Counted from the stretch's first letter, positions 39,065 to 57,698 are shown. The stretch is 64,000 nt of DNA from Candidatus Rokuibacteriota bacterium (GCA_030647435.1 JAUSJX010000081.1:2913-66912), one strand, 5' to 3'. Program-made: numbers and translations. Notes: generated by a model not told the origin, from the letters alone.

Positions 39065-39591
39065 TCGAGGGCGGCCACGACGTCGGACATCGGTGCGTGG
39101 TCACCCGCAAAGCGGTCCCGCCACTCGTAGCGCACGCGATCCGCCGGCCCCAGCACGAACACGCCGCCCTGCTGCACCGGATCCCCCCGCCGCGCGCCCT
39201 GCCTGAAGCCCTTCGCGAACGCCCGCAGACCCTTCACGAAGCTCCCGGGATGGAAGGTCCTGCCCCAGCCATAGGCGAGGCCGGCCGCGCGGAAGGCCTC
39301 CAGCGACGGGTCCGCGTAGAGCGGGCCCGCGTAGCCCGTGACTTCACGGAAACCCTTCAGGTACTCGGGCTTTCCCGGCCCGACGACGACGAGCGCGGCG
39401 CCCCGCCGGACTATCGAGGGCTCGGCGGCGGCCAGGTCAGCGACCTGCTGACGACAGAAGATTCAGCCGAAGTGGCGGACGAAGGCGAGGACGGCCTGCT
39501 GGTCGGCCCAGGAGCCGCCGAGCGTGACGGCGCGACCCTCGGCGTCGAGGACCGTGAGGCGCGCGAGCCGCGATGCCACAGTGTCGGACAT
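39061..39591 (-). CDS. Candidate selenoprotein: AhpC/TSA-like (Prx-like, PF13911-type) thiol-disulfide oxidoreductase with in-frame UGA (Sec43) in a U-x-x-C motif
   Basis: Minus-strand ORF from ATG 39591: MSDTVASRLARLTVLDAEGRAVTLGGSWADQQAVLAFVRHFG-[TGA 39465..39463]-IFCRQQVADLAAAEPSIVRRGAALVVVGPGKPEYLKGFREVTGYAGPLYADPSLEAFRAAGLAYGWGRTF...RVRYEWRDRFAGDHAPMSDVVAALD, ending TAG at 39063..39061. The reading frame continues through the TGA for a further 133 codons. The TGA sits at the first position of the redox dyad, where family members typically have Cys. Missed by the ORF track. Confidence 0.65.
39430..39462 (-). promoter_or_regulatory. Bacterial SECIS-like hairpin immediately downstream of the in-frame UGA
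   Basis: mRNA reads UGA-AUCUUCUGUC-GUCAGC-AGGUC-GCUGAC: a perfect 6-bp stem with a 5-nt loop containing GGUC, beginning 10-11 nt after the UGA. This spacing and loop are reminiscent of the E. coli fdhF SECIS apical loop. Confidence 0.55.
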
Positions 39592-39649
39592 GGCGCGATT
39601 CTACCCGCTTCCGGGTACTGGGCCAATTTGCTTTGCCAGATTTACTCAG

Positions 39650-39812: not shown

Positions 39813-40529
39813 TTAGCGGGGGCCGATACCGAATAGTCGGAGCACGGCACGGCGCCTGAGCGCCAGGATCGAGTCCGTGGGCGAGATCTCCATGGGACAG
39901 ACGGCGGTGCAGTTGGCCTGGCCGTGACAGCGCGTCAACACGTCCTCGGCGAGCACCGCCTGGCTGCGATCGGCATGAGCCCCGTCGCGGCTGTCCCGCT
40001 GGAGCGTGAAGACGCGGTTCAGCGCCGCGGGCCCGGGGAAGCGCGGGTCGTGGCTGACCATGGTGCAGGCCGAGACGCACATGCCGCAGCCGATGCACTC
40101 GATCGCGGCGTCGATGGCGCGCCGCTCGCGCGTGCGCGAGCCGATCAGGGCGAACCCGTCGCCGTCCATCGCCCGGCGGCCGGGGACGAAGACCGCCTTC
40201 ATCTCCAGCATCTTGTTCTTGATCGGAGCCATGTCGACGACGAGGTCGCGGATCAAGGGGAACTGGTACAGCGGCCGGACGGTCACCGGCCCGCGGTCGA
40301 GATTCGAGAGCAAGGTCCGGCAGGCCCAGCGCTCGCGGCCGTTGACGACCATGGCGCAGGAGCCGCACATGCCCACGCGGCAGGCGTAGCGAAAGGCGAG
40401 CGTCGCATCGGAGTTTCGCTGGAGCTCGACCAGCGCGTCGAGGACCGTCATGCCCTGGAGGGCCTTGACCCAGTACTTCTGCAGGCGCTCGCGCGAGCCC
40501 GGGCTCCAGCGGAAGACCTTCAGTACCAT
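39813..40529 (-). CDS. sdhB: Succinate dehydrogenase/fumarate reductase iron-sulfur subunit
   Basis: 2Fe-2S motif CRVGMCGSC, then CIGCGMCVSAC and CHGQANCTAVCP cluster motifs. ATG at 40529. Confidence 0.8.
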   Translation of the reverse strand: MVLKVFRWSPGSRERLQKYWVKALQGMTVLDALVELQRNSDATLAFRYACRVGMCGSCAMVVNGRERWACRTLLSNLDRGPVTVRPLYQFPLIRDLVVDMAPIKNKMLEMKAVFVPGRRAMDGDGFALIGSRTRERRAIDAAIECIGCGMCVSACTMVSHDPRFPGPAALNRVFTLQRDSRDGAHADRSQAVLAEDVLTRCHGQANCTAVCPMEISPTDSILALRRRAVLRLFGIGPR

Positions 40530-40828
40530 CGCCACCTCCAGATGGCCGCGAAGGCCGCCACGCCGACCAGGAGCGCCAGCAGGAAGAGCAGCCGGTGCCA
40601 GCGCGCCGGCAGGCCGAAGTCGAGGAGGATGGCGCGCACGCCAAGCAGGCCGTGGAAGAGCACGAGGGCGAGGAGCGCCGCCTGGACGGGGCGCGCGAAG
40701 GGGTTCTTCAGGTGCGCCGCGATCACCGCCACGAGGCCGATGGCCGCGACGCGCTGGAGCAGCCACGCCCACATGCCCACCTTGGTGTCCCGCCACGCCT
40801 CGGCGGAGCCCATGCGGCGCGTGAGCAT
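40520..40828 (-). CDS. sdhC: Succinate dehydrogenase hydrophobic membrane-anchor subunit (single small anchor)
   Basis: ~100-aa protein with 3 TM helices and conserved His residues. Overlaps the sdhB start by 10 nt. Confidence 0.5.
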   Translation of the reverse strand: MLTRRMGSAEAWRDTKVGMWAWLLQRVAAIGLVAVIAAHLKNPFARPVQAALLALVLFHGLLGVRAILLDFGLPARWHRLLFLLALLVGVAAFAAIWRWRWY

Positions 40829-40863
40829 CTTCCGGTCACGGACCGGCTCGGCGCGCCGCGCGC

Positions 40864-42567
40864 TCAATCCCCGACCTCAACGCCTGTCGGCTGGCGCTCG
40901 CCGTCGGGCGCGAGGCGCGTGAGCCGCGTCGGCTCTTTCCAGACGCGCAAGCCCGCCGTGTCGCCGCCGGCGACGTGGATGTTGTACAGCTCGGCGCCGG
41001 TGTCCGGGTGGTCGCGGCGGAAGTGCGAGCCGCGGCTCTCCTCGCGCTCGAGCGCGCTGCGCGCGATGAGCCAGGCGGCTGCGACCTGGTTCTGGAGGTT
41101 GAGCCAGTCCTGCCACGCGAGGTTGTAGGTCGTCCCGCCCGGCACGGCCGCCCTTGGCGCGCGCTGGCCGATGTCCTCGATCTCGCGGAGCGCCGCCTTG
41201 AGGCCCGAGGCCTGACGCACGAGGCCCACCTGCTCCCACATGACGTCGCGCAGCCGCTGCTGGAGCGCGTAGAGACCCTCGCCGCCCTCACCGCGCCCGA
41301 GGGGTTCGACTATGCGGGCCGCCGGCGCCTCGACGTCCGGCGTGGACAACCGCGGCAGGGACCGGCCCACGACCCACTCCGCCATCACGTCGCCCGCGAT
41401 CCCGCCGAAGACGGTCGAGTCGGCCACGCCATTGCCCCCCAGCCGATTCGCGCCGTGGACGCCACCCGCATCCTCGCCGGCGGCGAAGAGTCCCTCAATG
41501 GCGGTCCGGCACGAGGCGTCGATGACCACCCCGCCCATCATGAAGTGCGCCGTCGGGCCCACTTCGACCGGCTCGCGGGCCAGATCCCGACCGAAGTCGC
41601 GGCAGCGCTTGACCATGCCCCGGAAGTTGGTCTCGACGAGCTTCGCGCCAAGGTGAGACACATCGATCCACACGCCGCCGTTCGGGCTGCCGAGGCCCTC
41701 CTGCACCTCGGTGAAGCAGGCGCGCGCGACGAGGTCGCGCGTGGAGCGCTCCATGCGCCCCGGATCGTAGCGCGACATGAAGCGCTCGCCCTTGCCGTTG
41801 AGGAGCCTGCCCCCCGCCCCCCGGAGCCCCTCTTCGAGCAGCGCGCCGGTCATGAGCGAGTTCGGCACGACGAGGCCCGTGGGATGGAACTGCACCATCT
41901 CCATGTCCTTAACGGGGGCGCCGGCGCGCAGCGCCAGCGCGATGCCGTCTGCGGCCTTGTCCGCCGAGCAGGCGATGACGCGGTACATCGTCGGCCCGCC
42001 GCCCATCGCGAGCAGCGTGGCGCGGCTGCGCACCGCGGTGAAGCTCCCGCGGCGGATGTCGAGCACGAGCGCCCCGCCGACGCGGCCGGCGCCGTCGCTG
42101 AGCAGCTCGACCGCCCGGTGTTCCTCCAGCGCGCGAATGGAAGGGCGAATCCACACCTGCTCGGTCAGCCGGTTCATGATCTCGATGCCGGTCAGATCTC
42201 CCTTGTGGATGGTCCGGTCGTGCGTCTGGCCGGCGAAGGGCTTCTGGTGGATGCGGCCGTCGGGGTGGCGGTCGAAGAAGCAGCCGTAGCGGCTCTCGAG
42301 CTCCAGCACGCGCCCGGGCGCCTCGGTGACGAGCGTCCAGACGAGCTCCTGGTCGTTGATCCAGCCGCCGCCCGCAAGGGTATCGAGGAGGTGCGCGTCG
42401 AGAGAGTCGGGGGAGGCGAGTACGGCGTTGTAGCCGCCCTGGACCATCCGCGTGCAGCCCGCGCGGCCGAGCAACCCCTTGACGACGACGGTCACCGACA
42501 GGTGCGGCGAGCGGTCCGCGGCGTGCAGGGCGGCGCAGAGCCCGGCGCCGCCGGCGCCCAGGATCAA
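40864..42567 (-). CDS. sdhA: Succinate dehydrogenase/fumarate reductase flavoprotein subunit
   Basis: FAD loop ILGAGGAGLCAAL and catalytic motifs HPTGL, HFMMGGV and RLGGNGVADS. TTG start at 42567. The upstream in-frame sequence (ETDLLILG) has no canonical start codon. Confidence 0.85.
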   Translation of the reverse strand: MILGAGGAGLCAALHAADRSPHLSVTVVVKGLLGRAGCTRMVQGGYNAVLASPDSLDAHLLDTLAGGGWINDQELVWTLVTEAPGRVLELESRYGCFFDRHPDGRIHQKPFAGQTHDRTIHKGDLTGIEIMNRLTEQVWIRPSIRALEEHRAVELLSDGAGRVGGALVLDIRRGSFTAVRSRATLLAMGGGPTMYRVIACSADKAADGIALALRAGAPVKDMEMVQFHPTGLVVPNSLMTGALLEEGLRGAGGRLLNGKGERFMSRYDPGRMERSTRDLVARACFTEVQEGLGSPNGGVWIDVSHLGAKLVETNFRGMVKRCRDFGRDLAREPVEVGPTAHFMMGGVVIDASCRTAIEGLFAAGEDAGGVHGANRLGGNGVADSTVFGGIAGDVMAEWVVGRSLPRLSTPDVEAPAARIVEPLGRGEGGEGLYALQQRLRDVMWEQVGLVRQASGLKAALREIEDIGQRAPRAAVPGGTTYNLAWQDWLNLQNQVAAAWLIARSALEREESRGSHFRRDHPDTGAELYNIHVAGGDTAGLRVWKEPTRLTRLAPDGERQPTGVEVGD

Positions 42568-42652
42568 AAGATCGGTCTCGAGGATGTCGATGGCGCGCTC
42601 CGCGGTGACTATAGCCCCGGGCCGGGTCCGGGCGCAATCCGACGAGGCGCCC

Positions 42653-43336
42653 TCAGCGGGCGGGCGCCTTGAGCAGGTAGTCGAGGAGCTCGCGGGTCGG
42701 GCCCTCTGCCCACGAGCGGGTGCCCGTCACGCGGCCGACCAGCTTGTGATCGCGGCCGATCAGGTAGAGCGTGGGCACCACTTTGACCTTGTAGATGTCG
42801 GTCACGCCGCCGTCTCCGTCGAGGAGGAAGACCGGCGAGAGCCCACGGCTCTTCACCCAGGGCGCGACCGCTTCCGACGTCTCCTTCGTGGTGACGGCCA
42901 GCACCGTAAAGCGGCGCGGGAGAAGCTCGCGCTGGAGCTTGTCGATGGTCAACGACAGCTCGTCCGAGGCGTAGGGCGACGTCGTGCTCCAGAAGTAGAG
43001 CAGGACCACCTGCCCCGCGAAGTCGGAGAGGGCCACGCGCTTGCCGTCGGCGCGCAGCAGGGTGAAGGAGGGCGGGTCCTTGCCGACGAGCGGGAAGAGC
43101 CGGGCCGCCTCGACCAGCCGGTCGAGCTCGGTCTTATCCCTCAGCTTGTTCCGGTCCCGCTCCCGCTTGTAGAGGTCGTATTGCCACGGCTGCATCCTCT
43201 TCTCTATCGCGCGCTCCCGGGCCTCCTCGCGCTCTCGCTCCTCCTCCGTGTCCACCTGCCCCTGCGCCGGGGGGAGCCAAGCGACCAGGAGTACCAACAG
43301 GATCGCGAGTGCGCCCGCGCGGCGGGATGCGCTCAC
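42653..43336 (-). CDS. Secreted TlpA/redoxin-like thioredoxin-fold protein lacking the CxxC active site
   Basis: Signal peptide plus a TlpA-like fold (VVLLYFWSTTSPYASDEL). Both active-site cysteines are replaced, so it is predicted redox-inactive. Confidence 0.55.
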   Translation of the reverse strand: MSASRRAGALAILLVLLVAWLPPAQGQVDTEEEREREEARERAIEKRMQPWQYDLYKRERDRNKLRDKTELDRLVEAARLFPLVGKDPPSFTLLRADGKRVALSDFAGQVVLLYFWSTTSPYASDELSLTIDKLQRELLPRRFTVLAVTTKETSEAVAPWVKSRGLSPVFLLDGDGGVTDIYKVKVVPTLYLIGRDHKLVGRVTGTRSWAEGPTRELLDYLLKAPAR

Positions 43337-43653
43337 GCCGGCTTGACCTCGGCCGAGCCCTCGAAGCGCGATCCGTGGCTGTCGAAGAACGTGACCTTGA
43401 GCGGCCCGGGCTCGGTGACCCTGAACGCGAAGCCGAACGACGGGTTCTCGCCGATCGAGGTCGAGGTGTCGAACTCCGCGATGTCGCGGCCGAGGTAGTT
43501 GACGACGATGCGGTTGACGAAGCGGTAGTTCCTGTCCACCGACTTCCCGTCCTTGCGCTCGACGCGCTCGTTGGGGTGGATCAGGAGCGCCCGCGCCCGC
43601 GCGACCGACCCGCGCGCGACCGAGTCCGGCACCCTGATCTTCACCTGCCCCAT
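43333..43653 (-). CDS. soxZ: Thiosulfate-oxidation carrier complex protein SoxZ
   Basis: 106 aa: MGQVKIRVPDSVARGSVARARALLIHPNE...NRIVVNYLGRDIAEFDTSTSIGENPSFGFAFRV...KVTFFDSHGSRFEGSAEVKPA. ATG at 43653. Only visible on the track as the tail of an over-long ORF. Confidence 0.75.
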   Translation of the reverse strand: MGQVKIRVPDSVARGSVARARALLIHPNERVERKDGKSVDRNYRFVNRIVVNYLGRDIAEFDTSTSIGENPSFGFAFRVTEPGPLKVTFFDSHGSRFEGSAEVKPA

Positions 43654-43658
43654 GGTGC

Positions 43659-44147
43659 TCACGCGGCGCACCCCGCGACGACCACGCGGACGCTCCGCTT
43701 GACCATGAGGAGCGCGCCGTCCTGCATCTCCGCCACGGCGCGCACGTCTCCGGTGTCGGCCAGCCGGAGGTTGGCGGCCACGTACGCCTGGCCGCACGCC
43801 GGCGTGAGGCTGAACTTCGCGTTGAGCGGCCGCGGGTTCTTGTCGGACATGACGTAGATGGTCTTGACGTAGCTCTGCGGCGTCATCGGCGACTTGACCT
43901 CGACCGACATGGCCACGTTGCCGCCGTCTTCCGCGATGAGCGGCAACTCGAGCGTGATGACCTGGGATCCGTCCTTGATCGGGCGGCTCCCGAACAGCCG
44001 CTGCATGGTTTTCTCGACGGGCTCCTCGGGGGCAAGGTTGGCGAGGAAGCCTTGAGCGCGCGCCTTGGCGTGAGGCCAAGCGGCGGCAAGCGCCGCCGCG
44101 GCGGCCCCCATGAACACTTCTCTCCTGGTCACCCCCTGCCGAGCCAT
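43659..44147 (-). CDS. soxY: Sulfur carrier protein SoxY (Tat-exported)
   Basis: Tat motif TRREVF, a SoxY beta-sandwich, and a C-terminal swinging-arm Cys in the variant motif VVVAGCAA-COOH (canonical GGCGG). Confidence 0.7.
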   Translation of the reverse strand: MARQGVTRREVFMGAAAAALAAAWPHAKARAQGFLANLAPEEPVEKTMQRLFGSRPIKDGSQVITLELPLIAEDGGNVAMSVEVKSPMTPQSYVKTIYVMSDKNPRPLNAKFSLTPACGQAYVAANLRLADTGDVRAVAEMQDGALLMVKRSVRVVVAGCAA

Positions 44148-44203
44148 GGCTCCCCGCTTAACCATGGCTCCATGATGCCGCGCTTCACGACCAAGTCAAA
44201 GGC

Positions 44204-47032
44204 TCACGGCTCGAGGCGGTAGGTCGAGGCATCGGGCCTGAAGGCCCGCGGCAGCCAGAGGGGGCGCCTGAGCCCGCCGGGTCCCGGCGCCGGCCGCGCC
44301 ATGGCGAGCCACTCGCGGTAGACCTGATGCGCCCGGTTGGTGTCCACGACGACGTCGCCGTAGCGGTCCTCGGGCCCCGGGCGGACGACGCGCACCTTCT
44401 GGTGCCAGCAGTGCTGGCCGCTGACGGGGTCCGGATGCACCGGGAACGTCAGGTTCTGGTGGACGCCCGGGTCCTCCCACCAGACGCGCGACGAGTCGGG
44501 GTCAGCGCTCTCGAACGGCCTCACGCCGTGGATGTGGCGGAGCCGCCACTGCCCTTCGCCCAGCCGCTGCATGTCCACGAGGGCCGTGGACCAGCGCTCG
44601 CCGCCCGCGTCCTCCTGGAGCCGCCAGCGGCCGAGGTGATGCGAGCAGGCGACGACGCCGGGCCGGATCGACTCGGTCACCCAGACCTTGTCCACGAAGT
44701 GGCCGATCTCCGTCTCCACCTTCAGGAGATCTCCCGTGCGGACGCCGAGCCGCGATGCGTCCCCGGGACTGAGCCACAGCGGGTTGGTATGCGAGATCTC
44801 GTAGAGCCACTTGGCATTGCCCGAGCGCGAGTGGATCAGGGTCGGGAGCCTGAAGGTCGGCAGGAGCAGCATCTCACCGCGGGCCGGGTCGATCTGGGAC
44901 CAGTGCACGTGGCCTTTCGCGTAGGTCGGCACCGCGTGCTCCGGCCACTTCCAGTCCTTGAGCGTCTTCGAATAGAACTCGAGCTTTCGCGAGGGCGTGG
45001 GGAACCCCGCGCGGAGCTGCCCGTCGACTTCGACACCCACGGCGCTCCCGCCCTTGACCGCCACGCGCGTGACGGGGTCCACCGCGGCCCCTAGGCACTC
45101 CGCGGGGGAGAGCGGGGTCTCGTGGGTGCGGTAGACGTGATCTTCGATGAGGAACGCGCCGTACTTGCGCATGTACTCGAGCGGAGTCAGGCCCTGCCGC
45201 GCCGCGGCCTCAGGCAGCCCGGGGACGCTGTGCTCGAAGATCCACCGGTAGAGCTCCTCGATCCTGAGCTTCTCGCCCGCGCGGTACGGGGACTCGAAGA
45301 ACTTCCTGATGCCGAGCGTCCCGTCGGGATCGATGCGCCACGACAGCTCGATCAAGAACTCGTCCTCCTCCCACACCTGCCCCAGCCCCACGGCCTCGTG
45401 GGCCTGCCAGGTCAGGTCGAACTTCTTGCCCTGCCGCTCGAGGGCCACGCGCAGGACGGGCTGGCGGAAGCCGATCCAGCGCGCCGCGTGGGTCTCCTGG
45501 CTCATGAGGTCGTGGCGCTCCGAGGCGTGCCCCATCGGCAGCACGTAGTCGGCGAACCACGCGGTCTCGCTCCAGATGGGCGTAAGACAGGCGTGCCGCT
45601 CGACCTTGGCCTCGTCCGTCAGCATCTCGATCCACGACATGCCGTCGGGGTTGGTCCAGACGGGGTTGTAGACACGCGTGAAGTACATGGCGAGCTTGCC
45701 GCGGCCTTCGCGGAGGAAGTGCGGCAGGAGGAAGCTCATCTCGAAGAAGGCCAGCGGGTACTCGCGCGGCATCAGGAGCTCGCTCCACACTTTCGCGGGG
45801 GGCGGCATCATCGGCGGCGCCGGCACGGCCTTGTTCCAGGCGCTGGGCGCGGTGCCGCCGGGAACCGCGACGGCGCCCATCAGCACCACCACCAGCTCCA
45901 GGGCGCGCGCGACTTCCCAGCCATGGAGGTTGCCCGCCGCGGCGTTCCGCCACACGTGACTCGAGAGCGCGCCGCCCGAGCGGCCGATCTCCCGCGCCAC
46001 TTCCTCGATGCGCGCCGCGGGGACACCGCTCTCGGCCTCTGCGAACTCCGGCGTGTACGTCGCGTAGATCTCGCCCAGCGCCCGCTCGAATTCTTCGAAG
46101 GCGACCGGCACGCCCGGCCGCTCGTGGCGCAGGTACTCCTCCCAGTTGACCCAGCGGCGGACGAACTCGCGGTCCCAGGTGCCGTCACGCAGCAGGACGT
46201 GGACGAAGGCCAGGAGCATCGCGGCCTCGGTCCCCGGCCAGGGCGACAGCCAGTAGTCCGCCATCGATGCGGTGTTGGACAGACGCGTGTCCACCACGCA
46301 AACCTTGGCGCCCGCCATCTTGCCCTCGATGATCCGCTGGGCGTGCGGATTGAAGTAGTGCCCCGCCTCGAGGTGGGAGGACAGGAGGAGGATGAAGCGC
46401 GCGCGGCTGTGATCGGGCGAGGGCCGGTCGAACCCGTGCCAGAAAGCGTAGCCGGCACGCGCCCCCGCCGAGCAGACGTTGGTGTGGCTGTTGTGCCCGT
46501 CGATGCCCCAGGCGTGGAAGACGCGCTGGAGGTAGACGAGCTCGTGCCCCGGGCGGCCCAGGTGATACATGATCTCCTTCTGCCTGCCCTCGACGAGCGC
46601 CTTGCGGATCCGACCGGCAATGTCGTCCAGCACCTCGTCCCAGCTGACGCGCTCCCACTTGCCTTCCCCGCGCTTCCCGGCGCGCTTCAGCGGGTAGAGG
46701 ATGCGCTCCGGATCCTGCACCTGGTTGAGCGTGGCCGGGCCCTTGGCGCAGTTGCGGCCGCGGCTGCCCGGGTGCTCGGGGTTGCCCTCGAACTTCTGGA
46801 TCTTGAGCGTCTGCTTGTCCACGTAGGCGAGGAGCCCGCAGCCCGCCTCGCAGTTGAAGCAGATGGTGGGGATGAGCGAGTAGCGCCGCGGCACGCGCTT
46901 CGGCCACGCTTTCGAGTCGTACTCCTCCCAGTCGTCCCACCGATCGACGGGCGGAAAGGGGCTGAGCCCGGGCGCCGGCGGGTCGAGGTCGCGGGCGTGC
47001 GGGTGAAGCGGGTCGGCTGACTTGTCGGTCAT
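44204..47032 (-). CDS. Molybdopterin (bis-MGD) oxidoreductase catalytic subunit, DMSO-reductase/complex iron-sulfur molybdoenzyme (CISM) family, cytoplasm-facing (SoeA-like)
   Basis: 942 aa with the N-terminal 4Fe-4S motif C-x2-C-x3-C...C (CFNCEAGCG...NCAKG) and a likely Mo-ligand region HTNVCSAGAR. No twin-arginine signal. AGGA Shine-Dalgarno before the ATG. No in-frame TGA. Confidence 0.75.
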   Translation of the reverse strand: MTDKSADPLHPHARDLDPPAPGLSPFPPVDRWDDWEEYDSKAWPKRVPRRYSLIPTICFNCEAGCGLLAYVDKQTLKIQKFEGNPEHPGSRGRNCAKGPATLNQVQDPERILYPLKRAGKRGEGKWERVSWDEVLDDIAGRIRKALVEGRQKEIMYHLGRPGHELVYLQRVFHAWGIDGHNSHTNVCSAGARAGYAFWHGFDRPSPDHSRARFILLLSSHLEAGHYFNPHAQRIIEGKMAGAKVCVVDTRLSNTASMADYWLSPWPGTEAAMLLAFVHVLLRDGTWDREFVRRWVNWEEYLRHERPGVPVAFEEFERALGEIYATYTPEFAEAESGVPAARIEEVAREIGRSGGALSSHVWRNAAAGNLHGWEVARALELVVVLMGAVAVPGGTAPSAWNKAVPAPPMMPPPAKVWSELLMPREYPLAFFEMSFLLPHFLREGRGKLAMYFTRVYNPVWTNPDGMSWIEMLTDEAKVERHACLTPIWSETAWFADYVLPMGHASERHDLMSQETHAARWIGFRQPVLRVALERQGKKFDLTWQAHEAVGLGQVWEEDEFLIELSWRIDPDGTLGIRKFFESPYRAGEKLRIEELYRWIFEHSVPGLPEAAARQGLTPLEYMRKYGAFLIEDHVYRTHETPLSPAECLGAAVDPVTRVAVKGGSAVGVEVDGQLRAGFPTPSRKLEFYSKTLKDWKWPEHAVPTYAKGHVHWSQIDPARGEMLLLPTFRLPTLIHSRSGNAKWLYEISHTNPLWLSPGDASRLGVRTGDLLKVETEIGHFVDKVWVTESIRPGVVACSHHLGRWRLQEDAGGERWSTALVDMQRLGEGQWRLRHIHGVRPFESADPDSSRVWWEDPGVHQNLTFPVHPDPVSGQHCWHQKVRVVRPGPEDRYGDVVVDTNRAHQVYREWLAMARPAPGPGGLRRPLWLPRAFRPDASTYRLEP

Positions 47033-47075
47033 TGAGTCCTCAAGAGAGTGGGGATCCTCACGAGAGTGGGCGTCC

Positions 47076-48623
47076 TCACGAAAGGGGCAGCGCTTGGCCG
47101 GCGCGCACCCAGATGTCTTCCCAGAGCCAGAGGCCGAAAAGACCGAGCACGGTCGCCGCGACGGCCGCCCATGGCTGCGGCGAGAGCACGAGCAGGACGA
47201 GCGGCACGGCGGTGCCGCCCACCACGATGCCCCACCAGAAGCGGACGCGGTACGGGCCCCGCGTGATCAGCCGCGCGGCGCGGGCGGCATCCTGGGTGGC
47301 ATGCGCCGTGAAGGCCTCGGCGAAGAGCACGACGCCGTTCAGGGCGAGCGAGAACCAGAGCGCCATGCGGAGCCCCTCGGCCACGCGCGGATCGTGGCTG
47401 ATGGCGAGCGCGGCGAGCAGGAGGCCCGCGCAGCCGGCCGTGACAGCGGCCACGAGGAGATGGGGCAGCACGAGCGGGCTCTGCCAGAAGTCGCGCCCCT
47501 CGGCCTGGCCGAAGAGGAAGGCGCTGTAGCCGGCCGACGCCGTGGCCACGAGCAGCACGGGCCAGCCCAGGGCGAAGAACGCCATGTAGCTCTGCGTCCA
47601 GCCCGCGACGAGCCAAGCGACGCCCAGGAGACCGTGCGCCGTCAAAATCCACCCGCCCCAGACCAGCCAGGAGCGCCAGTTCGGCTTCAAGAGGAGATAG
47701 AGGAATCGCTCCGGGCGCTTGAGGTCGAGGACGAGAAGCGCGGTCGTCAGCGCGAGGAAGACGAGGCTGATGAGCGGCGCCGCGAGACCCGCCACGGGTC
47801 CCGCAAAGGACAGCCCGGCGATCGCGGTGATCGCCGCGACGAGAAGCGCACCCGCCGCGACCGACTTGGTCCAGAGATACGTCGAGACCTTCCACCCCCA
47901 GGGCCGCTCCGGATGCGCCACGTCGTACACTGTCCGCGCCATGCCGAGCAGGTCCACGCCTTCACCGGCGACGGCTGCAGCCCGGCCGGCGACGTTGGGC
48001 CCGCCCGGCACCGGGATGCGGCTCGCCTCGGCGAACATATAGCGGTCACCGGCCTCCTGCATGGCCGGCCTCAGCGCGGCTTCGTCGGCGCCGATATAGA
48101 AGAGCTTGGGCTGCGTCCCCTGCTCCGGCTTGCGCACCGCCACCTGCTGCGTGGCGACCAGACGCGCGATCCCCGAGTTGGGGTCGTCCAGGTCGCCCGG
48201 GACGATGGCCTGCACCGGGCACACGATGACGCACGCCGGCTCGAGCCCGACCTCGACCCGGTGCGCGCAGTAGTGGCACTTGGCCGCCGTCTGCGTCTCC
48301 GGGTCGATGTAGAGCGCGTCGTACGGGCAGGCCTGCATGCACGACTTGCAGCCGATGCAGCGGTCACCGTCGAAGTCCACGATGCCGTCGGGGCGCCGGT
48401 AGAGCGCGACGGTCGGGCAGATCGTCACGCACGGGGCGTTGTCGCAGTGGTTGCACCGCATGACGGAGAAGTAGCGCCGCGTGTCGGGGAACGTGCCCTT
48501 CTCGATGTACTTGACCCAGGTGCGGTTGACGCCGAGGGGCACCTGGTTCTCTTCCTTGCACGCCACCGTGCAGGCGTGACACCCGATACATTTCCGCTGG
48601 TCGATCACGAAGCCGTAGCGCAA
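47076..48623 (-). CDS. Fused 4x[4Fe-4S] ferredoxin subunit and NrfD/PsrC-like membrane anchor (CISM B-C fusion)
   Basis: N-terminal ~200 aa has four Cys clusters (CIGCHACTVAC, CNHCDNAPC, CIGCKSCMQAC, CHYCAHR...CVIVCP). The C-terminal ~300 aa is polytopic and NrfD-like. Confidence 0.75.
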   Translation of the reverse strand: MRYGFVIDQRKCIGCHACTVACKEENQVPLGVNRTWVKYIEKGTFPDTRRYFSVMRCNHCDNAPCVTICPTVALYRRPDGIVDFDGDRCIGCKSCMQACPYDALYIDPETQTAAKCHYCAHRVEVGLEPACVIVCPVQAIVPGDLDDPNSGIARLVATQQVAVRKPEQGTQPKLFYIGADEAALRPAMQEAGDRYMFAEASRIPVPGGPNVAGRAAAVAGEGVDLLGMARTVYDVAHPERPWGWKVSTYLWTKSVAAGALLVAAITAIAGLSFAGPVAGLAAPLISLVFLALTTALLVLDLKRPERFLYLLLKPNWRSWLVWGGWILTAHGLLGVAWLVAGWTQSYMAFFALGWPVLLVATASAGYSAFLFGQAEGRDFWQSPLVLPHLLVAAVTAGCAGLLLAALAISHDPRVAEGLRMALWFSLALNGVVLFAEAFTAHATQDAARAARLITRGPYRVRFWWGIVVGGTAVPLVLLVLSPQPWAAVAATVLGLFGLWLWEDIWVRAGQALPLS

Positions 48624-48641
48624 GCGAGTCTCCCGTGAACC

Positions 48642-49424
48642 CTAGTGCAGAACGTCGATCCAGACGCGCAGGGCCGCCAGCGCGATGACGGCGCCGAGTA
48701 TTACACGCAGGACGCCCACGGGAGCGCGCCTGCTGAGATGCGCGCCGAGGCTCGCGCCCGGCAATGAGCCCGCCACGACGGCGACGGCCGCGATGAAAGG
48801 GACCTGGCCCGTCGCGAGCTTGCCCACGAACCCCAAGCACGCGCCGGCGCCGACCATCACGAGCGAGGTGCCGATGCTGAGCCGCACCGGGAGCCGCATG
48901 ACGCCCACGAGCGCGGGCATCAGGAGAAACGCCCCGCCGGCGCCGACCAAGCCCGAGAAGACGCCGACCACTCCCGGGATCGCGACGGCCTCGGCCCGGT
49001 TGAACAGCATGGTCTCCGCGCGCGCGCCCGGCGCGGCGACGATAGGCGGGATGAACATGAGCAGCAGCGCCGCTGTGGCCATCAGGGCGAAGACGAGGAG
49101 CAGCACGCGCCCCCCGACGTAGTGTGCTCCAACCGCTCCCGCCAGCGAGCCCGCGGCCATGGCCGACCCGCCCCAGAGGGCCAGGCGGCGGTGCACCATG
49201 GCGCCGCGGCCGTGGGTCCATGCGCCCATCACGGAGGCCGCCAGCACCTGCGCCATGGTCACGCCCGCCACCAGCTTGATGTCGAGGCTGCCCACGGCGA
49301 GGAGCGGCGGGACATAGAAGAGGAGCGGGATCATCACGATGGCCCCGCCCACGCCGACCAGTCCCGACGCGAACGCGCCCACGAAGCCCAGCGCGGCCAG
49401 CGTCAGGATGAAGACCGCGCTCAT
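48642..49424 (-). CDS. TauE/SafE-family sulfite exporter (DUF81)
   Basis: 8-TM protein with duplicated TauE halves containing G-rich motifs (GLVGVGGAIVMIPLL and GLVGAGGAFLLMPAL). Start chosen at M47 of the track ORF. Confidence 0.6.
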   Translation of the reverse strand: MSAVFILTLAALGFVGAFASGLVGVGGAIVMIPLLFYVPPLLAVGSLDIKLVAGVTMAQVLAASVMGAWTHGRGAMVHRRLALWGGSAMAAGSLAGAVGAHYVGGRVLLLVFALMATAALLLMFIPPIVAAPGARAETMLFNRAEAVAIPGVVGVFSGLVGAGGAFLLMPALVGVMRLPVRLSIGTSLVMVGAGACLGFVGKLATGQVPFIAAVAVVAGSLPGASLGAHLSRRAPVGVLRVILGAVIALAALRVWIDVLH

Positions 49425-49626
49425 GCGGAAGCGCCAGGGTCCGGTTGCGACATGGGCAGCATGATACCTCGACCGCCCCCCGCGCCGATGGCCCGCGTCG
49501 ATGACGGTCCCGCAGGCCCCGAGTGCGAAGCCTACAGGCAGCAGCCAGAGGGGTTCGGGCATGAGTCGCCGAAAGCTCGGCGGCCCATTCTGCCACGGCG
49601 TCCCCGGGCGGGCGCCGGATTCCGGG

Positions 49627-50235
49627 CTAGCGGAGGCTCGAGTAGTACGCGGCCAGATCGGCGAACTGGCCGTCCGGGATGATCTTCATCAGCGCCTTCT
49701 TGGCCGCGAGCAGCGGTTCGCCCGGGTCCCGCGTGTCCACCTTGAAGAGCACCATCTGCTGCGCGAGGTAGCCGGGCGGCTGTCCGGCGAGTCCCGGGAT
49801 CAGCCGCGCGGGATCACCCTTGCCGTCCGGCCCGTGGCAGATCACGCACTGGGCCGCAACCGTCTTGCCTCTCGCGGCGGCTTCGGCCGAAGAGCGAATG
49901 GGCGTGGGCACGCGCTTCTGCGCGGCGAAGTACGCCGCGATCTGGTTCAGCCCGAGGAACTGGATCTCCTTGGCGTAGGGCTCCATCTCGGGCGACGGGC
50001 GCTTGCCGGCGGCGTAGTTCTCGATCTGCCGCTTGAAGTAGGCCGGGTCGAGCCCGGAGATGATCGGCATCATGTTGGAGCCGCTGTTGCCGTTGGCACC
50101 GTGGCAGGCCGCGCACGTGATGACCTTCGCGAAGCCCGGGTCGTCGAGCGGGCCGGCGGCGCAGGCCGCGCCGGGCCCGGCCGCGAGTACGAAAACTGCC
50201 GCCGCGAGGGCGGCCGCGAAGCGTGAGGTCGTCAT
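49627..50235 (-). CDS. fccA: Diheme cytochrome c, flavocytochrome c sulfide dehydrogenase cytochrome subunit (FccA-like)
   Basis: Signal peptide and two CxxCH motifs (CAACH, CVICH). Confidence 0.7.
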   Translation of the reverse strand: MTTSRFAAALAAAVFVLAAGPGAACAAGPLDDPGFAKVITCAACHGANGNSGSNMMPIISGLDPAYFKRQIENYAAGKRPSPEMEPYAKEIQFLGLNQIAAYFAAQKRVPTPIRSSAEAAARGKTVAAQCVICHGPDGKGDPARLIPGLAGQPPGYLAQQMVLFKVDTRDPGEPLLAAKKALMKIIPDGQFADLAAYYSSLR

Positions 50236-50250
50236 GATCGCCGTCCCCCT

Positions 50251-51546
50251 CTACGACAGCATGTCGGCCCAGATGCTCTGCCGCCAGCCCTCTGCACGCT
50301 GGGCGACGGAGACGCTCTGGGCGGGCGTGAGCTTCTGCTCGATCTGGACCACCTTGCCGTTCTCGATCTTGTAGGAATTCACCACCGCGATGGCTTCGCG
50401 GTCGCTGACCCAGCTGTAGCAGGTGTTGCCTGGAGGCATGAGCGGCACGGCTTGCCCGTTGAGCAGGCTCACGATGCTGAGCGCCGCCGCCTTGCCCATG
50501 TTGTTGGCGACGTTTCCGGACTTCGGCACGGGCAGTCCGATGGTCGCGTCGCCGACCACGTGGATGTTCTTCTGCTTCACCGACTCGTACGTGACGTGGT
50601 CCACCTCGCACCAGCGCTTGTCGGCGCCGACGAGGTCCGCCTGGACGGCAATCGTGCCCGCGCGCTGGGGCGGGATCAGGTTGAGCACGTCGTACTTGAC
50701 GCGGTCGAACTCGGTGCGGACTTCGCGCGTCGAGGTATCGACGCCGATCACCTTCTGCGAGGCGCGGTAGTCGATGTTCGGGTACGCCTGCCACGCCGCG
50801 CGGAAGAGCGCGGTCTTCGACACGATGTTCTGGTTGGCGTCGAGCACGATCACCTTGCTCTTCGGCTTGTGCTGCTTGAGGTACCACGCGACCTGGCAGA
50901 TGCGCTCGTAGGGGCCCGGCGGGCAGCGGAAGGCGACGGGAGGCACCGTCAGGACGAAGACGCCGCCGTCCGGCATGGACTGGATCTGCGCCGCCAGCTG
51001 CACCGTCTGCGGCCCCGCCTTCCACGCGTGGAGCACCGTGTCCTTGGCGGCCGCGAGCCCCTCGATCTGCTCCCACTGGAAGTCGATGCCGGGCGAGACG
51101 ACGAGACGGTCGTAGGCGAGGTAGCCTTGGCCGATGCGGACCCTCTTGGTGTCGGGCTCGATGGCGGTCGCTGACTCGTGGATGATCTTGACGCCGCGGG
51201 CCCGGAGCCCCGCGTAGGAAAGCGTCAGGCTCTCGATGGTCCGCTGCCCGCTCAACACGAGATTGCTGAACGGGCAGGAGACGAACTCGCGGTTGGGCTC
51301 GAGCAGCACCACTTCGATCGACGGGTCGGCGATCCGGATGTATCTGGCCGCGGTGGACCCGCCCCAGCCGCCGCCGATCACCACCACCCTGCGACCGCTC
51401 TTTGGCGCGATGTCGCCCGTCATGGTACTGGCGCAGCCCGAGAGTCCAAGACCAGCGCCCAAGCCCAACCTGACACCGACACCCACACCCGAGGAGCGGA
51501 GGAAATCTCTGCGCGTCAGCCCGCTCATAGACCCCGCCTCCTTCAT
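50251..51546 (-). CDS. fccB: Flavocytochrome c sulfide dehydrogenase flavoprotein subunit (FccB/SoxF-like)
   Basis: Tat signal SGLTRRDFLRSSG, then the FAD motif VVVIGGGWGGSTAARY. FccB-like C-terminal domain. Confidence 0.8.
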   Translation of the reverse strand: MKEAGSMSGLTRRDFLRSSGVGVGVRLGLGAGLGLSGCASTMTGDIAPKSGRRVVVIGGGWGGSTAARYIRIADPSIEVVLLEPNREFVSCPFSNLVLSGQRTIESLTLSYAGLRARGVKIIHESATAIEPDTKRVRIGQGYLAYDRLVVSPGIDFQWEQIEGLAAAKDTVLHAWKAGPQTVQLAAQIQSMPDGGVFVLTVPPVAFRCPPGPYERICQVAWYLKQHKPKSKVIVLDANQNIVSKTALFRAAWQAYPNIDYRASQKVIGVDTSTREVRTEFDRVKYDVLNLIPPQRAGTIAVQADLVGADKRWCEVDHVTYESVKQKNIHVVGDATIGLPVPKSGNVANNMGKAAALSIVSLLNGQAVPLMPPGNTCYSWVSDREAIAVVNSYKIENGKVVQIEQKLTPAQSVSVAQRAEGWRQSIWADMLS

Positions 51547-51620
51547 TGATTGGCTCGTTTATCGACCGGAATACGGAGAAATGTACTAAGCCATTTGCAT
51601 CATGTCAACAGCGTTTTTGG

Positions 51621-55091: not shown

Positions 55092-57698
55092 CTATCTGAG
55101 CATGTCCGGGTCTTCGATCACCTGCCAGAGTGAGCACAAGCTCCATCCGCAGAAAATACCTGTGGGGAATGATACTCCCGGGGGCGGGTCGGCCAGCCGT
55201 TTCAGAGACGCAAGGTCCGGATCCTCGGGAGGGAATCCCGGTGTCCCTACCCGCGGAAGAACGACGGTCCCGTCCGCAGTCCAACCCTTCACGAAATAGG
55301 TGGGAGTGGCGGTACGGAGCAGATGGTCGGGTGCTACGGGGAGCAGTGACGCCGCCCAGACCGATAGGACATCCGCCTCTCCAGCGCCGATCTCCGTGGA
55401 GGTCCCGTCGACGAGTGAAGACAGGTACACCCGGTTGTTATCGCTGTTCACCCACAGGAGATGCCTGCCTCCGCGCTGAGGGTCAGGATAGTACGGCATT
55501 CCGAATGGCTCCCAGCCCATGAGCGTGGTCACCACACTACCATTCCCATCGACAACTCCCAGATACACGCGGTACGAATCGTTGTCGGCGTAAATGTTGT
55601 GAAAGCCCTCCACAACGATGCGGCTTTCGCCAGGATTGCTGGCGTCGAGGCGCAGCACCATCGACGCAAAGACCCCAGTGAAACCCAGCCCTCCGCTGGG
55701 CGCACCCAGGGCACTCGGGGGCAGATCGAAGACTATCGTGCGCGCCGTGTGGTTCACCACCAGGGCATGGCACTCTTCTCGTTCCATGTGGAACGGATCC
55801 GGGATGTCGAGACAGTAGTCCCCGGGAAGGATCACGTTGAGATTGTCATCAAGAAGGGCACGGTAGTTTAAAACTTGTGGCCTGGCGAAGGGCGGCAGCT
55901 GCGAGAGCATGAAGAACGGGTCGAAGAGATCGGGTCCACGCACGAGGGTCGCCACGGGTGGGTCGCGGAAGACTTGATCGGGCCGTGGCCGGTTCAGGGT
56001 GAACACGTAGAAATGCGACACACCCTCACCAGGAACACCCCCTTCCACCAGGAAGGTGTCGTTGCGGGTGCCCCACGAGCGCAGAATGACGAGGCTGCCA
56101 GACGGGAGTTGAGAGCGTACGTTGAGCTTTGTCACCAGCGTCCCATTGCGAAAGTACACGTCGCCGTCGGCCGCGTTGACGAAGAGTTGCTCGATGGTCC
56201 CCACGTACTTCGCGGCCTTGCCGATGACGGCACCCCCAAACCCAGGCGGGTTATCCTTCTTCTCCTCGCCCAAGCTCCCCTGATACACCACCATGTAGCG
56301 CTCCGGAATCGGCCGGTCAGTCGGAGGACGGAAGCTGAGAGTCTGGTCGGACAGAGCATCCCCGGACGCCACCGGCCCCGAAATCGTCCAGGACCCGAGC
56401 TCGCGGCGCCCCTCACTCGCGTAGTCGCCGAAGACCTTCAGCATGCCGTCCTTCAGCGGTTCTTGCGACTCGTTCTTGCCCGTCAACAGGAACGCTTGCG
56501 GATCCGCCGGGTCCGGCGCGATCCTCGCCCCGAGCTTCCCCCGGAAGAAGTAATCCAGCAGCGCAGCGGAGTAACTGACGGCCTTCGGTAGGAGCCGCGC
56601 GGCGTAATTCTCCAGAACCTTGTCATCTAGGGCCTTCTCTTGGTCTCGTAGTGCATCGGGGAGGCTCTCATACAGGGCGCTCGGAACCGCCAGCCGATAT
56701 CCAGTGTCTCCGTCCTGCGTCTTAAGGAAGTAGCGGCGACGCACACCGCCGGGCGCATCCTCTTCATTGCCGAGCTCGACGCTCGCAAAGGATGGATACC
56801 GAAAACTGGGATTACCCGGCGCGTGATCCTCGAAGACTGTATGGTCACTGAAGAAGTTGGCGTTCGTATACTCTGCCAGCCCGACGGTGAGACGCATCGT
56901 ATCTGTGGGATTGGTCCCATCGTACCGATCGGTGTCCATGAGCCGTGCTATTGGAACTTTCGCCACCTGATCATCTACGGGCACGTTGATCGAGAAGATG
57001 CTCGGATCGACCGGCTGAAGGGTCGCGCTCAGAATGGAATCGACCCTTGGCTTGTTCCTCAGTGCCCACGCCTCAAAGCGGTCCGATACGGGGCAATGGA
57101 TGTCGTTGCGTGTATGCGCCGGTACCACCAGGTCAGCCACGAGATGCATTTGCTGACCCAGGACCTGAAGGGTCCGGGTCCATCCGTCGTCGCGGTCGAC
57201 CATCGCCCCAAGTGTTAGGGCCTCGAAATACGCCTTCCGAGCGTCGGCCCAAGCTGCCTGTCCACTCTGCCCCTGGTCGGCGTTCTGAGCCCATCGCGGC
57301 GACGACTCTCCGGAGATGACGAAAGGCAGACAAATGCTCAGCGTCCTCAACCCGGAGTCCGCCCACGACGCCACGATTGGGTTGTGGAAATGGTTCTTCG
57401 ATCGGTATGCCGCGCCGAACCACTCGCTCTCGTCGTACAGGTCCTCGGCGCGCCCGCCAAACTGAATCCATCGGAAACCGGTCCGCTCGTCGTCCGGTTT
57501 CCGTCGAAATGTCTTACCAAGCCCATCCTTCAGGCCGAGCTCATCCTTCAGATATGCCCCAGTCCCCGATATGACGGCGGCGCGATCGTTGATCGAGACG
57601 TGGGTCTCCAGCTTGAAGGCCACCGCGCCGGGGATGTCCGCCGTCGTCAGGACTGCGAGGATCAATGTCCCAAAAAAGCGGGGCTTGTACGCGATCAT
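55092..57698 (-). CDS. Large secreted hypothetical protein (~868 aa)
   Basis: Signal peptide MIAYKPRFFGTLILAVLTTADIPGAVA. No family recognised. Lies in a lower-GC (~60%) segment. Confidence 0.45.
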   Translation of the reverse strand: MIAYKPRFFGTLILAVLTTADIPGAVAFKLETHVSINDRAAVISGTGAYLKDELGLKDGLGKTFRRKPDDERTGFRWIQFGGRAEDLYDESEWFGAAYRSKNHFHNPIVASWADSGLRTLSICLPFVISGESSPRWAQNADQGQSGQAAWADARKAYFEALTLGAMVDRDDGWTRTLQVLGQQMHLVADLVVPAHTRNDIHCPVSDRFEAWALRNKPRVDSILSATLQPVDPSIFSINVPVDDQVAKVPIARLMDTDRYDGTNPTDTMRLTVGLAEYTNANFFSDHTVFEDHAPGNPSFRYPSFASVELGNEEDAPGGVRRRYFLKTQDGDTGYRLAVPSALYESLPDALRDQEKALDDKVLENYAARLLPKAVSYSAALLDYFFRGKLGARIAPDPADPQAFLLTGKNESQEPLKDGMLKVFGDYASEGRRELGSWTISGPVASGDALSDQTLSFRPPTDRPIPERYMVVYQGSLGEEKKDNPPGFGGAVIGKAAKYVGTIEQLFVNAADGDVYFRNGTLVTKLNVRSQLPSGSLVILRSWGTRNDTFLVEGGVPGEGVSHFYVFTLNRPRPDQVFRDPPVATLVRGPDLFDPFFMLSQLPPFARPQVLNYRALLDDNLNVILPGDYCLDIPDPFHMEREECHALVVNHTARTIVFDLPPSALGAPSGGLGFTGVFASMVLRLDASNPGESRIVVEGFHNIYADNDSYRVYLGVVDGNGSVVTTLMGWEPFGMPYYPDPQRGGRHLLWVNSDNNRVYLSSLVDGTSTEIGAGEADVLSVWAASLLPVAPDHLLRTATPTYFVKGWTADGTVVLPRVGTPGFPPEDPDLASLKRLADPPPGVSFPTGIFCGWSLCSLWQVIEDPDMLR

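Follow-up and report, generated by a model that had tools for sequence, protein, structure and literature searches.

A predicted PSRLC3-type molybdoenzyme in a sulfur-oxidation gene cluster of Rokubacteria that adjoins complex II genes

Introduction

We analyzed a group of sulfur-oxidation and succinate dehydrogenase (SDH) genes in a 64,000-nucleotide stretch of DNA from a Rokubacteria/Methylomirabilota bacterium (GCA_030647435.1, JAUSJX010000081.1:2913-66912; G+C content 70%), hereafter called the window. Its main subject is a molybdoenzyme encoded by two genes, one for a catalytic molybdenum (Mo) subunit and one for a protein in which an iron-sulfur (FeS) domain and an NrfD-type membrane anchor are fused. 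The closest described system is PSRLC3 (polysulfide-reductase-like complex 3), which is regarded as an alternative or inferred sulfite-oxidizing system of green sulfur bacteria (PMC6338057, PMC9324843). The name goes back to Frigaard & Bryant 2008 and Gregersen et al. 2011, as cited in PMC9324843, PMC6338057 and PMC5473276, and the genome of Prosthecochloris sp. HL-130-GSB was reported to contain "2 genes encoding PSRLC3" (PMC5473276). PSRLC3 and the window unit have in common two genes (a PsrA-like Mo subunit and a fused FeS/membrane subunit), the lack of signal peptides, a TauE neighbor and a proposed role in cytoplasmic sulfite oxidation. They differ in location: the window unit lies between fccBA-tauE and soxYZ, whereas the green sulfur unit adjoins dsr genes.

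Two other groups of molybdoenzymes are comparable. SoeABC of Allochromatium vinosum (SoeA D3RNN8) and Aquifex aeolicus (SoeA aq_1234) is likewise a membrane complex of a molybdenum-bis(pyranopterin guanine dinucleotide) (Mo-bisPGD) subunit, an FeS subunit and an NrfD-type subunit, with its catalytic side in the cytoplasm (PMC8076601 for the orientation). However, SoeABC consists of three separate subunits in the order A-B-C, whereas the window has a fused BC gene 5' of A. In addition, the reported distribution of SoeC-type genes is confined to Proteobacteria, Clostridia and Aquificae (PMC8076601), and these are not the phyla that carry the enzyme family of the window. The closest solved structures are PsrABC of Thermus thermophilus (PDB 2vpw) and ArrAB (PDB 6cz7), which share the cofactor-binding motifs and the eight-helix NrfD-type anchor. 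These enzymes, in contrast, are periplasm-facing reductases exported by the twin-arginine translocation (Tat) pathway, their B and C subunits are separate, and the similarity (approximately 1e-35) covers only the first 40% of the catalytic subunit.

A third comparison involves the detoxification clusters of heterotrophs that combine sulfide:quinone oxidoreductase (SQR), persulfide dioxygenase (PDO) and rhodanese. Outside Rokubacteria, the two-gene unit is embedded amid PDO-rhodanese, SQR, TauE, YeeE and CsoR/ArsR-type regulators. In Staphylococcus aureus, the cst operon (CstR, TauE, CstA, CstB and SQR) is a similar kind of cluster. According to PMC5702731, SQR-PDO-rhodanese systems end at sulfite or thiosulfate. 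The loci with the two-gene unit differ in that they add the Mo enzyme and often a SulP permease, and would complete the oxidation to sulfate.

Results and Discussion

Two adjoining units in the window

Pfam and NCBIfam domain searches identified eleven genes on the minus strand, running from fccB (51528) to sdhB (39813). We consider it fairly probable that this region is a composite of two adjoining units, i.e., a sulfur-oxidation cluster (fccB to soxZ, together with a decaying redoxin) and an ordinary complex II, and that the molybdoenzyme of the former is a sulfite oxidizer. In the order of transcription, the genes are:

50251..51528, minus strand: fccB, flavoprotein of flavocytochrome c sulfide dehydrogenase, predicted to be periplasmic; Tat motif RRDFL; FCSD_central (1.4e-38), FCSD-flav_bind (4.3e-12) and Pyr_redox_2 domains
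49627..50235, minus strand: fccA, diheme cytochrome c, partner of FccB; Cytochrom_C and Cytochrome_CBB3 domains; two CxxCH motifs; signal peptide in the translation
48642..49424, minus strand: TauE/SafE-family anion transporter; TauE domain (1.2e-35); orthologs of 261 aa
47076..48623, minus strand: fused PsrB-like four-cluster ferredoxin and NrfD/PsrC-like quinone-binding anchor, 515 aa; Fer4_11 and NrfD domains; eight predicted transmembrane helices; four Cys groups
44204..47032, minus strand: catalytic Mo-bisPGD subunit, 942 aa; Molybdop_Fe4S4, Molybdopterin and Molydop_binding domains; no Tat motif
43659..44147, minus strand: soxY, periplasmic sulfur-carrier subunit; SoxY domain (2.2e-32); Tat motif TRREV; TIGR04488 at 116.1 (cut-off 125)
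43333..43653, minus strand: soxZ; SoxZ domain (6.5e-17); TIGR04490 at 51.7 (cut-off 76)
42653..43336, minus strand: secreted redoxin of the TlpA/ResA fold, both redox residues lost; AhpC-TSA and Redoxin domains; motif FWSTTSPYA, no Cys
40864..~42609, minus strand: sdhA/frdA-type flavoprotein; FAD_binding_2 domain (6.4e-80); archaeal TfrA model at 575 bits (cut-off 718); best PDB match Mycobacterium smegmatis Sdh1
40520..40828 (up to 40867), minus strand: single small three-helix anchor, 102–115 aa; Sdh_cyt at 29.3 (cut-off 25.8); His in helix 1 and helix 2
39813..40526, minus strand: sdhB, iron-sulfur subunit; Fer2_3 and Fer4_8 domains; TIGR00384 at 180 (cut-off 88)

A preliminary description of this DNA had placed eleven tightly spaced genes at 39813-51546 and interpreted them as a dedicated sulfur-oxidation unit linked to SDH. 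The genes and their domain content were present as described, including SoxYZ without soxAX, soxB or soxCD in the window. Tight spacing held for most junctions, which were short or overlapping (15, 18, 43, 56, 5, -4, ~43–85, 35 and -7 nt from fccB to sdhB, with fccA-TauE set aside). It failed for fccA-TauE, where the gap was 202 nt with the TauE start supported by the 261-aa orthologs and 64 nt only with the longest open reading frame (ORF). This spacer (49425-49626, minus strand) is unusually long: the same junction in relatives ranged from an overlap to 116 nt, and no Rfam match was found within it.

The dedicated sulfur-oxidation unit was borne out for the first seven genes. The order fccB-fccA-tauE-(YeeE)-fusion-Mo-soxY-soxZ recurs in other Rokubacteria contigs, in which the first seven or eight genes are arranged as in the window, and the arrangement is therefore not due to chance. 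The module was conserved in loci L001, L002, L010, L011 and L092, and partial views of it were found in L009, L012, L019, L091 and L093; in L092, soxYZ and the redoxin were missing. These data support the view that genes fccB to soxZ form a cluster dedicated to the oxidation of sulfur compounds, with conservation across Rokubacteria.

Relationship to PSRLC3 and occurrence of the two-gene unit

The Mo subunit was 61% identical over 948 aa to a protein of Prosthecochloris sp. HL-130-GSB (WP_085658763), and the fusion protein was 49% identical over its full length (515 aa) to the partner subunit of Prosthecochloris aestuarii DSM 271. Because the green sulfur proteins matched at these identities bear the PSRLC3 name, we classify the window molybdoenzyme by homology as a PSRLC3-type complex. 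The same two-gene layout, with the fusion gene and the Mo gene 43 nt apart in the window, was present in P. aestuarii DSM 271 and Chlorobium. Members from green sulfur bacteria came from Prosthecochloris sp. HL-130-GSB, P. aestuarii DSM 271, Pelodictyon luteolum and Chlorobium phaeovibrioides, and homologs of the Mo subunit in Rokubacteria/Methylomirabilota metagenome bins were 80–96% identical to that of the window.

At least 591 candidate loci of the two-gene unit were detected in species-representative genomes. The best 80 of these all showed at least 59% identity and were distributed in Rokubacteria, Binatia, Acidobacteriota, Chloroflexota, Bacteroidota, Chlorobium, Gemmatimonadota, Planctomycetota and others; Actinomycetota and haloarchaea were further carriers. 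In almost all loci that were long enough, the fusion gene preceded the Mo gene on its strand, in most cases immediately. Several cultured hosts carried the unit on plasmids, including Thermomicrobium roseum (TRD_RS12035/12030, 65% identity), Rhodococcus jostii RHA1 (pRHL3, RHA1_RS43840/43835, 61%) and Natrinema (53–55%), and this location hints at horizontal spread. Additional cultured carriers were P. aestuarii, Lutibacter aestuarii and Flavilitoribacter nigricans.

The only name given to this family in IMG was "anaerobic selenocysteine-containing dehydrogenase". None of the annotations that we met for the unit named it SoeA, and an NCBIfam search of the Mo subunit returned no Soe model. In two tblastn passes over 72,556 plasmids, outgroup matches were only Arx-like, Phs, Dms, Fdh, Nap, Nar and Ttr proteins, with no SoeA among them. 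Outgroups in an all-library HMMER search were either unnamed or carried Phs/Psr names in IMG, with 33–39% identity.

Genes adjacent to the two-gene unit

We surveyed the neighbors of the unit in 88 loci by unsupervised clustering of flanking ORFs followed by tblastn tests of presence or absence. The latter were used because longest-ORF calling in high-GC loci lost real genes to antisense ORFs. The neighbors and the number of loci (out of 88) were:

PDO-rhodanese fusion: 25
SulP/STAS permease, directly 3': 17
YeeE/TsuA-type transporter: 13
SQR/FccB-like flavoprotein: 12
TauE: 10
rhodanese: 9
TusA: 6
DsrE2: 4

In Chlorobium bins, the order was fusion-Mo-TauE-DUF1634-DsrE2-Rhd-TusA-DsrN-DsrC-DsrA-DsrB-DsrL, and its first part (fusion-Mo-TauE-DUF1634-DsrE2) was also found in P. 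aestuarii. Plasmid pRHL3 of R. jostii RHA1 (locus L006) had the order DsrE-TusA-fusion-Mo-Mrp amid PDO-like metallo-beta-lactamase genes, a rhodanese and CsoR/ArsR-type regulators, and a CsoR-like regulator was located 5' of the pair in T. roseum. A gene for an iron-sulfur carrier of the Mrp/NBP35 (ApbC-like) family was directly 3' of the unit in both pRHL3 and a plasmid of Natrinema halophilum (L008); it may be a dedicated maturation factor of the molybdoenzyme.

Subunits of the molybdoenzyme

The Mo subunit contains a conserved Cys motif for cluster FS0 (C58/C61/C65/C95) and a conserved DGHNSHTNVCS sequence, in which Cys187 is the candidate Mo ligand. Its best PDB matches were ArrA (2.5e-36) and PsrA (3.1e-35). 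NCBIfam scores were 190 for PhsA (cut-off 694), 89 for TtrA (cut-off 1750) and 118 for ArrA (cut-off 1600), i.e., no equivalog cut-off was reached. The fusion protein best matched PsrB (PDB 2vpw_B, 1.2e-52) and, among NCBIfam models, TtrB (203 bits, cut-off 416). With ArrA and PsrA as the best structures and PhsA and TtrB as the best models, the Mo subunit is assigned by similarity to the sulfur/arsenic branch of the dimethyl sulfoxide reductase superfamily and not to the nitrate or formate enzymes, a placement that, according to the preliminary description, would have refuted its reading. An AlphaFold2 model of this subunit based on 45 close homologs was of low quality (mean pLDDT 53, pTM 0.41). 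A paper on archaeal fusion proteins (PMC11237513), considered as a parallel for the FeS-NrfD fusion, was not relevant.

The aligned orthologs included those of Rokubacteria, Thermomicrobium, Rhodococcus and Natrinema. A Tat motif with a following hydrophobic stretch was absent from both the Mo subunit and the fusion protein in nine orthologs from five phyla. The ferredoxin domain of the fusion starts at residue 1, without a signal peptide, and the N-terminus shares its side of the membrane with the K/R-rich loops of the NrfD part (positive-inside pattern). On the basis of these three features, the catalytic and FeS side of the enzyme is predicted to face the cytoplasm.

An 18-nt tandem repeat was observed at the junction of the two genes:

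47037..47089: 18-nt tandem repeat, 3.0 copies, 83% matches, unit TCTCGTGAGGAnnCCCAC (coding strand); each copy with GAGGA

It covers the stop codon of the fusion gene (47076-47078) and the spacer to the Mo start, and GAGGA resembles the core of a ribosome-binding site.

FccAB, TauE and SoxYZ

FccAB was recognized by the FCSD domains and Tat signal of FccB together with the adjoining diheme cytochrome c. A Shine-Dalgarno sequence, AAGGAGG, lies 7 nt 5' of the fccB ATG at 51528, and FccB identity across the Rokubacteria loci was 72–78%. TauE is proposed to carry sulfite or sulfate across the membrane; in Chlorobium and Prosthecochloris, a TauE gene also occurs 3' of the Mo gene.

SoxY and SoxZ passed the Pfam cut-offs and scored slightly below the NCBIfam equivalog cut-offs. 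The C-terminus of SoxY is AGCAA rather than the canonical GGCGG, with the carrier Cys kept. In a multiple alignment, the window protein and those of L091 and L093 ended in AGCA(A/V), and those of L001 and L002 in GGCGG. Compared with truncated Sox systems (SoxYZ, SoxXA and SoxB without SoxCD), soxY and soxZ are shared, and two relatives (L010 and L011) carry a fused SoxXA gene, SoxB (769 bits, cut-off 550) and a redoxin 3' of soxZ, beside the same Mo enzyme. The window differs in having only soxYZ, the AGCAA arm and an inactive redoxin. Relatives L001, L010 and L011 also have a PDO-rhodanese gene and YeeE on the 5' side.

No tblastn match in the window was found for soxXA and soxB (with SoxXA and SoxB of L010 as queries), PDO, YeeE, DsrE, TusA, aconitase, icd or mdh, and there were no soxCD or dsr genes within the window. 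The lineage of the window has a reduced version of the module, without PDO, YeeE, soxXA and soxB in the window. According to the preliminary description, its reading would also be refuted if SoxYZ homologs belonged to a complete sox operon elsewhere and this copy were degenerate. This was borne out in part: relatives have soxYZ-soxXA-soxB-redoxin, and in the window the redoxin is dead and the carrier Cys of SoxY is intact.

SoxYZ has been described, in the title of Dahl et al. 2013 (cited in PMC9324843), as relevant to sulfite oxidation beside SoeABC in A. vinosum. The position of soxYZ and TauE next to a PSRLC3-type enzyme is consistent with a link between SoxYZ and sulfite oxidation.

Redoxin and selenocysteine-containing relatives

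The redoxin between soxZ and sdhA had been noted as lacking Cys, and this was correct: the position of the CxxC/UxxC motif of TlpA/ResA proteins is occupied by S-P-Y-A. In the orthologs of L010, L011 and L001, the corresponding sequence is U-P-Y-C (U for selenocysteine). These redoxins (L010, 21337-21936; L011, 19593-20147; L001, 13890-14432) have an in-frame TGA in the motif W-x-x-x-U-P-Y-C, followed by a conserved hairpin, GAGGG-AGUUG-CCCUC. Their genes are located after soxYZ-soxXA-soxB in L010 and L011 and directly after soxYZ in L001. We identify them as putative selenocysteine-containing, TlpA-like, sox-associated thiol-disulfide oxidoreductases, each of which was split into two ORFs by gene calls. 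The redoxin of L093 is also dead and that of L091 lacks its N-terminal half; within the cluster, no gene was less conserved (61% identity in L093). The window redoxin is therefore a decaying or non-catalytic remnant of the UPYC selenocysteine redoxin, i.e., a redox-dead descendant of a selenoprotein and not a new Cys-less redox protein.

A second gene of this kind lies just 3' of sdhB (39061-39597, minus strand). It encodes a SelL-related AhpC/TSA_2 protein with an in-frame TGA at 39463-39465 in the motif FVRHFG-U-IFC, a six-bp hairpin similar to a selenocysteine insertion sequence (SECIS), GUCAGC-AGGUC-GCUGAC, approximately 13 nt 3' of the TGA, and a promoter-like site at 39598-39626. This gene probably codes for a selenoprotein that ORF finders cut in two. 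Its selenocysteine codon and SECIS-like hairpin suggest that the host uses selenocysteine.

Proposed function of the molybdoenzyme

We propose the following pathway. FccAB would oxidize sulfide in the periplasm and pass electrons to cytochrome c, and SoxYZ would act as a periplasmic carrier of sulfane sulfur or sulfite. The two-gene molybdoenzyme, anchored in the membrane so that its catalytic and FeS domains are cytoplasmic, would oxidize sulfite to sulfate and transfer the electrons to quinone, and TauE would shuttle sulfite or sulfate between the compartments. The molybdoenzyme is thus probably a cytoplasm-facing sulfite:quinone oxidoreductase and a functional analog of SoeABC. From the genes we infer sulfite as the substrate, along with the direction in which electrons flow and the parts played by TauE and SoxYZ. 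PDO and reverse-type Dsr (rDsr) both release sulfite in the cytoplasm. Since these enzymes are neighbors of the unit, and since a SulP permease fits sulfate export, cytoplasmic sulfite oxidation is suggested.

Several observations weigh against this proposal. The substrate is read from genomic context only. About half of the sampled loci had no recognizable sulfur gene within 10 kb, and the window encodes no step from sulfane sulfur to sulfite. By sequence, the nearest characterized relatives are reductases (PhsA, PsrA, ArrA and TtrB). Finally, tight spacing and the lack of a terminator-like site between the redoxin and sdhA make read-through co-transcription with SDH possible.

The enzyme might instead oxidize thiosulfate, or a persulfide or thiosulfonate that is bound to a carrier and supplied by TusA, DsrE or rhodanese, rather than free sulfite, again in the cytoplasm. 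TusA and DsrE/DsrE2 are close by in RHA1, Chlorobium and Prosthecochloris, rhodanese domains are common neighbors, YeeE/TsuA-type thiosulfate transporters adjoin the unit in 13 loci, and the window has no sulfite-producing enzyme, all of which would fit such a substrate. We nevertheless regard it as unlikely, because PDO and rDsr, the commonest or most telling neighbors, yield sulfite, because both the PSRLC3 proposal and the A. vinosum SoeABC precedent (Dahl et al. 2013, as cited in PMC9324843 and PMC8076601) concern sulfite, and because the pair occurs without any sulfur-relay gene in many loci.

It is quite unlikely that the enzyme is a quinol-fed reductase of polysulfide, thiosulfate or tetrathionate. 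This possibility is raised by the best NCBIfam matches (PhsA, 190 bits; TtrB, 203 bits) and PDB matches (ArrA, PsrA and PsrB), by the B-C-A gene order, which resembles ttrBCA and the B-C-A clusters of Azoarcus KH32C and Sulfurovum mangrovi (33–38% identity), and by the Phs/Psr names that the nearest outgroup clusters carry in IMG. However, every score was far below the family cut-off, and both subunits lack a Tat signal, unlike all characterized Psr, Phs, Ttr and Arr enzymes. The neighbors are oxidative (PDO, SQR, FccAB and the dsr genes of sulfide-oxidizing green sulfur bacteria) and include a SulP permease of a sulfate family; moreover, the unit is common in lineages of aerobic heterotrophs.

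Complex II and its adjacency to the sulfur genes

The last three genes encode a complex II with one small anchor gene, as previously noted, and contain the catalytic flavoprotein motifs, a three-cluster FeS subunit and a membrane anchor. The protein resembles known complex II (succinate:quinone oxidoreductase/quinol:fumarate reductase, SQR/QFR) in the catalytic motifs of SdhA (HPTG, HFxMGG, RLGGN and ESRGxH, all intact), the cluster motifs of SdhB and the tricarboxylic acid (TCA) cycle neighborhood in relatives. It differs in its single three-helix anchor gene, in a best SdhA model that is archaeal (TfrA, below the cut-off) and in the replacement of the His that binds flavin adenine dinucleotide (FAD) covalently by Gly-Cys. 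The motif RSHT of 8-alpha-N3-histidyl-FAD is replaced by RAGCT (residues ~33–38), whose Cys aligned either with His44 of Escherichia coli FrdA or one position after the His of Sdh1. RAGCT is kept in L091-L093, and it is shared by all four Rokubacterial orthologs. Loss of the covalent-FAD His has been linked, in work on FrdA and SdhA mutants, with fumarate-reducing rather than succinate-oxidizing enzymes. The replacement suggests a non-covalent or cysteinyl flavin and perhaps a bias toward fumarate reduction.

The anchor weakly matched SdhC of M. smegmatis Sdh2 (8e-6) and has 107 aa in L091-L093; one anchor gene of approximately 105 aa implies that the anchor is a homodimer or that the subunit composition is unusual. 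At the orthologous start of sdhA there is no ATG, GTG or TTG (42567-42652, minus strand). Upstream, the frame remains open over more than 50 codons, and the first canonical start (TTG, 42567) would truncate the FAD-binding fold within its first strand. The gene may use a non-canonical start or be damaged, or the sequence may contain an error.

The proposed link of the sulfur genes to SDH was not upheld by comparison with relatives. In L091 and L093, the genes after sdhA-anchor-sdhB encode aconitase, isocitrate dehydrogenase and malate dehydrogenase (icd and mdh), and in L091 also fumarase. The same three genes follow a HIT-family gene 3' of sdh in L092, and aconitase follows a MazE/PemK pair 3' of sdh in L001. 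Unrelated genes are inserted within the sdh genes, i.e., an ABC transporter between sdhA and the anchor in L092, and an amidohydrolase, SnoaL and an opposite-strand M20 peptidase in L001. No SDH was found beside the module in L002, L010 and L011, nor in the 76 loci sampled outside Rokubacteria, nor in loci sampled from cultured hosts. Because TCA genes follow, insertions are unrelated and the adjacency is absent elsewhere, we conclude that sdhA-anchor-sdhB is an ordinary complex II that heads a TCA block and is a mere neighbor of the sulfur cluster.

That all eleven genes form one operon coupling sulfur oxidation to complex II via the quinone pool, for example with sulfide or sulfite oxidation driving fumarate reduction, is very unlikely. 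The genes do share one strand with short or overlapping junctions, the terminator scan found no terminator-like site in the redoxin-sdhA interval, four relatives with 80–90% identical Mo subunits retain the adjacency, and SdhA lacks the covalent-FAD His, a trait linked with fumarate-reducing enzymes. However, the continuation of SDH into an aconitase-icd-mdh-fumarase block, the insertions in L092 and L001 and the lack of adjacency in the loci just listed argue against coupling, and L092 has the SDH adjacency yet lacks soxYZ and the redoxin.

Other elements of the window

Two promoter-like sites were observed, each as a consensus match alone:

51580..51608, minus strand: sigma-70-like promoter candidate TTGACA-17-TACATT, 5' of fccB; 10/12 matches
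44172..44199, minus strand: weaker promoter-like site TTGACT-16-CATCAT, in the interval between the Mo subunit and soxY; 9/12 matches

Three sites of the first kind were observed in the region, compared with 0.5 expected from shuffled sequences. Terminator-like sites across the region were no more numerous than in shuffled sequence and do not fix the operon borders.

The cluster is preceded (5') by genes for threonine synthase and elongation factor G. The former, a PALP gene, was considered as a cluster-linked cysteine synthase and rejected, as it scored as threonine synthase (467 bits, cut-off 303). On the 3' side are the separate selenoprotein gene described above and then tetratricopeptide repeat genes on the opposite strand. 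The remaining scanned ORFs of the window are housekeeping genes, and Rfam and tRNA scans of the window gave no match.

Two observations concern genes elsewhere in the window. The recA gene (3154-5283, plus strand; 709 aa) contains an intein, with a LAGLIDADG homing-endonuclease domain between the RecA core and the C-terminal domain. An 898-aa ORF (55092-57788, minus strand) lies in a stretch with a G+C content of 61–65% and had no Pfam match at E<=0.001.

Conclusions

One further function is highly improbable, namely a cytoplasmic O2-independent sulfane-sulfur/sulfite dehydrogenase that with FccAB, SoxYZ and TauE takes sulfide to sulfate without Dsr, sHdr, PDO or SoxCD, which would explain the pair without a nearby sulfite-generating enzyme here and in many loci of other phyla.

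With complex II as a neighbor only, the claimed novelty of this region, sulfur oxidation wired to SDH, falls away. On the other hand, PSRLC3, the proposed cytoplasmic sulfite oxidizer of green sulfur bacteria, is a widespread two-gene unit, to judge from the candidate loci counted above. A sediment survey reported SoeABC as "not detected" (PMC12345210); surveys that target SoeABC alone may miss a large share of the sulfite-oxidation potential. The presence of TauE and SoxYZ beside the enzyme provides genomic support for the published role of SoxYZ in sulfite oxidation. Cultured carriers, including R. jostii RHA1, T. roseum, P. aestuarii, Lutibacter aestuarii, Flavilitoribacter nigricans and Natrinema, make the proposal that PSRLC3 oxidizes sulfite directly testable.

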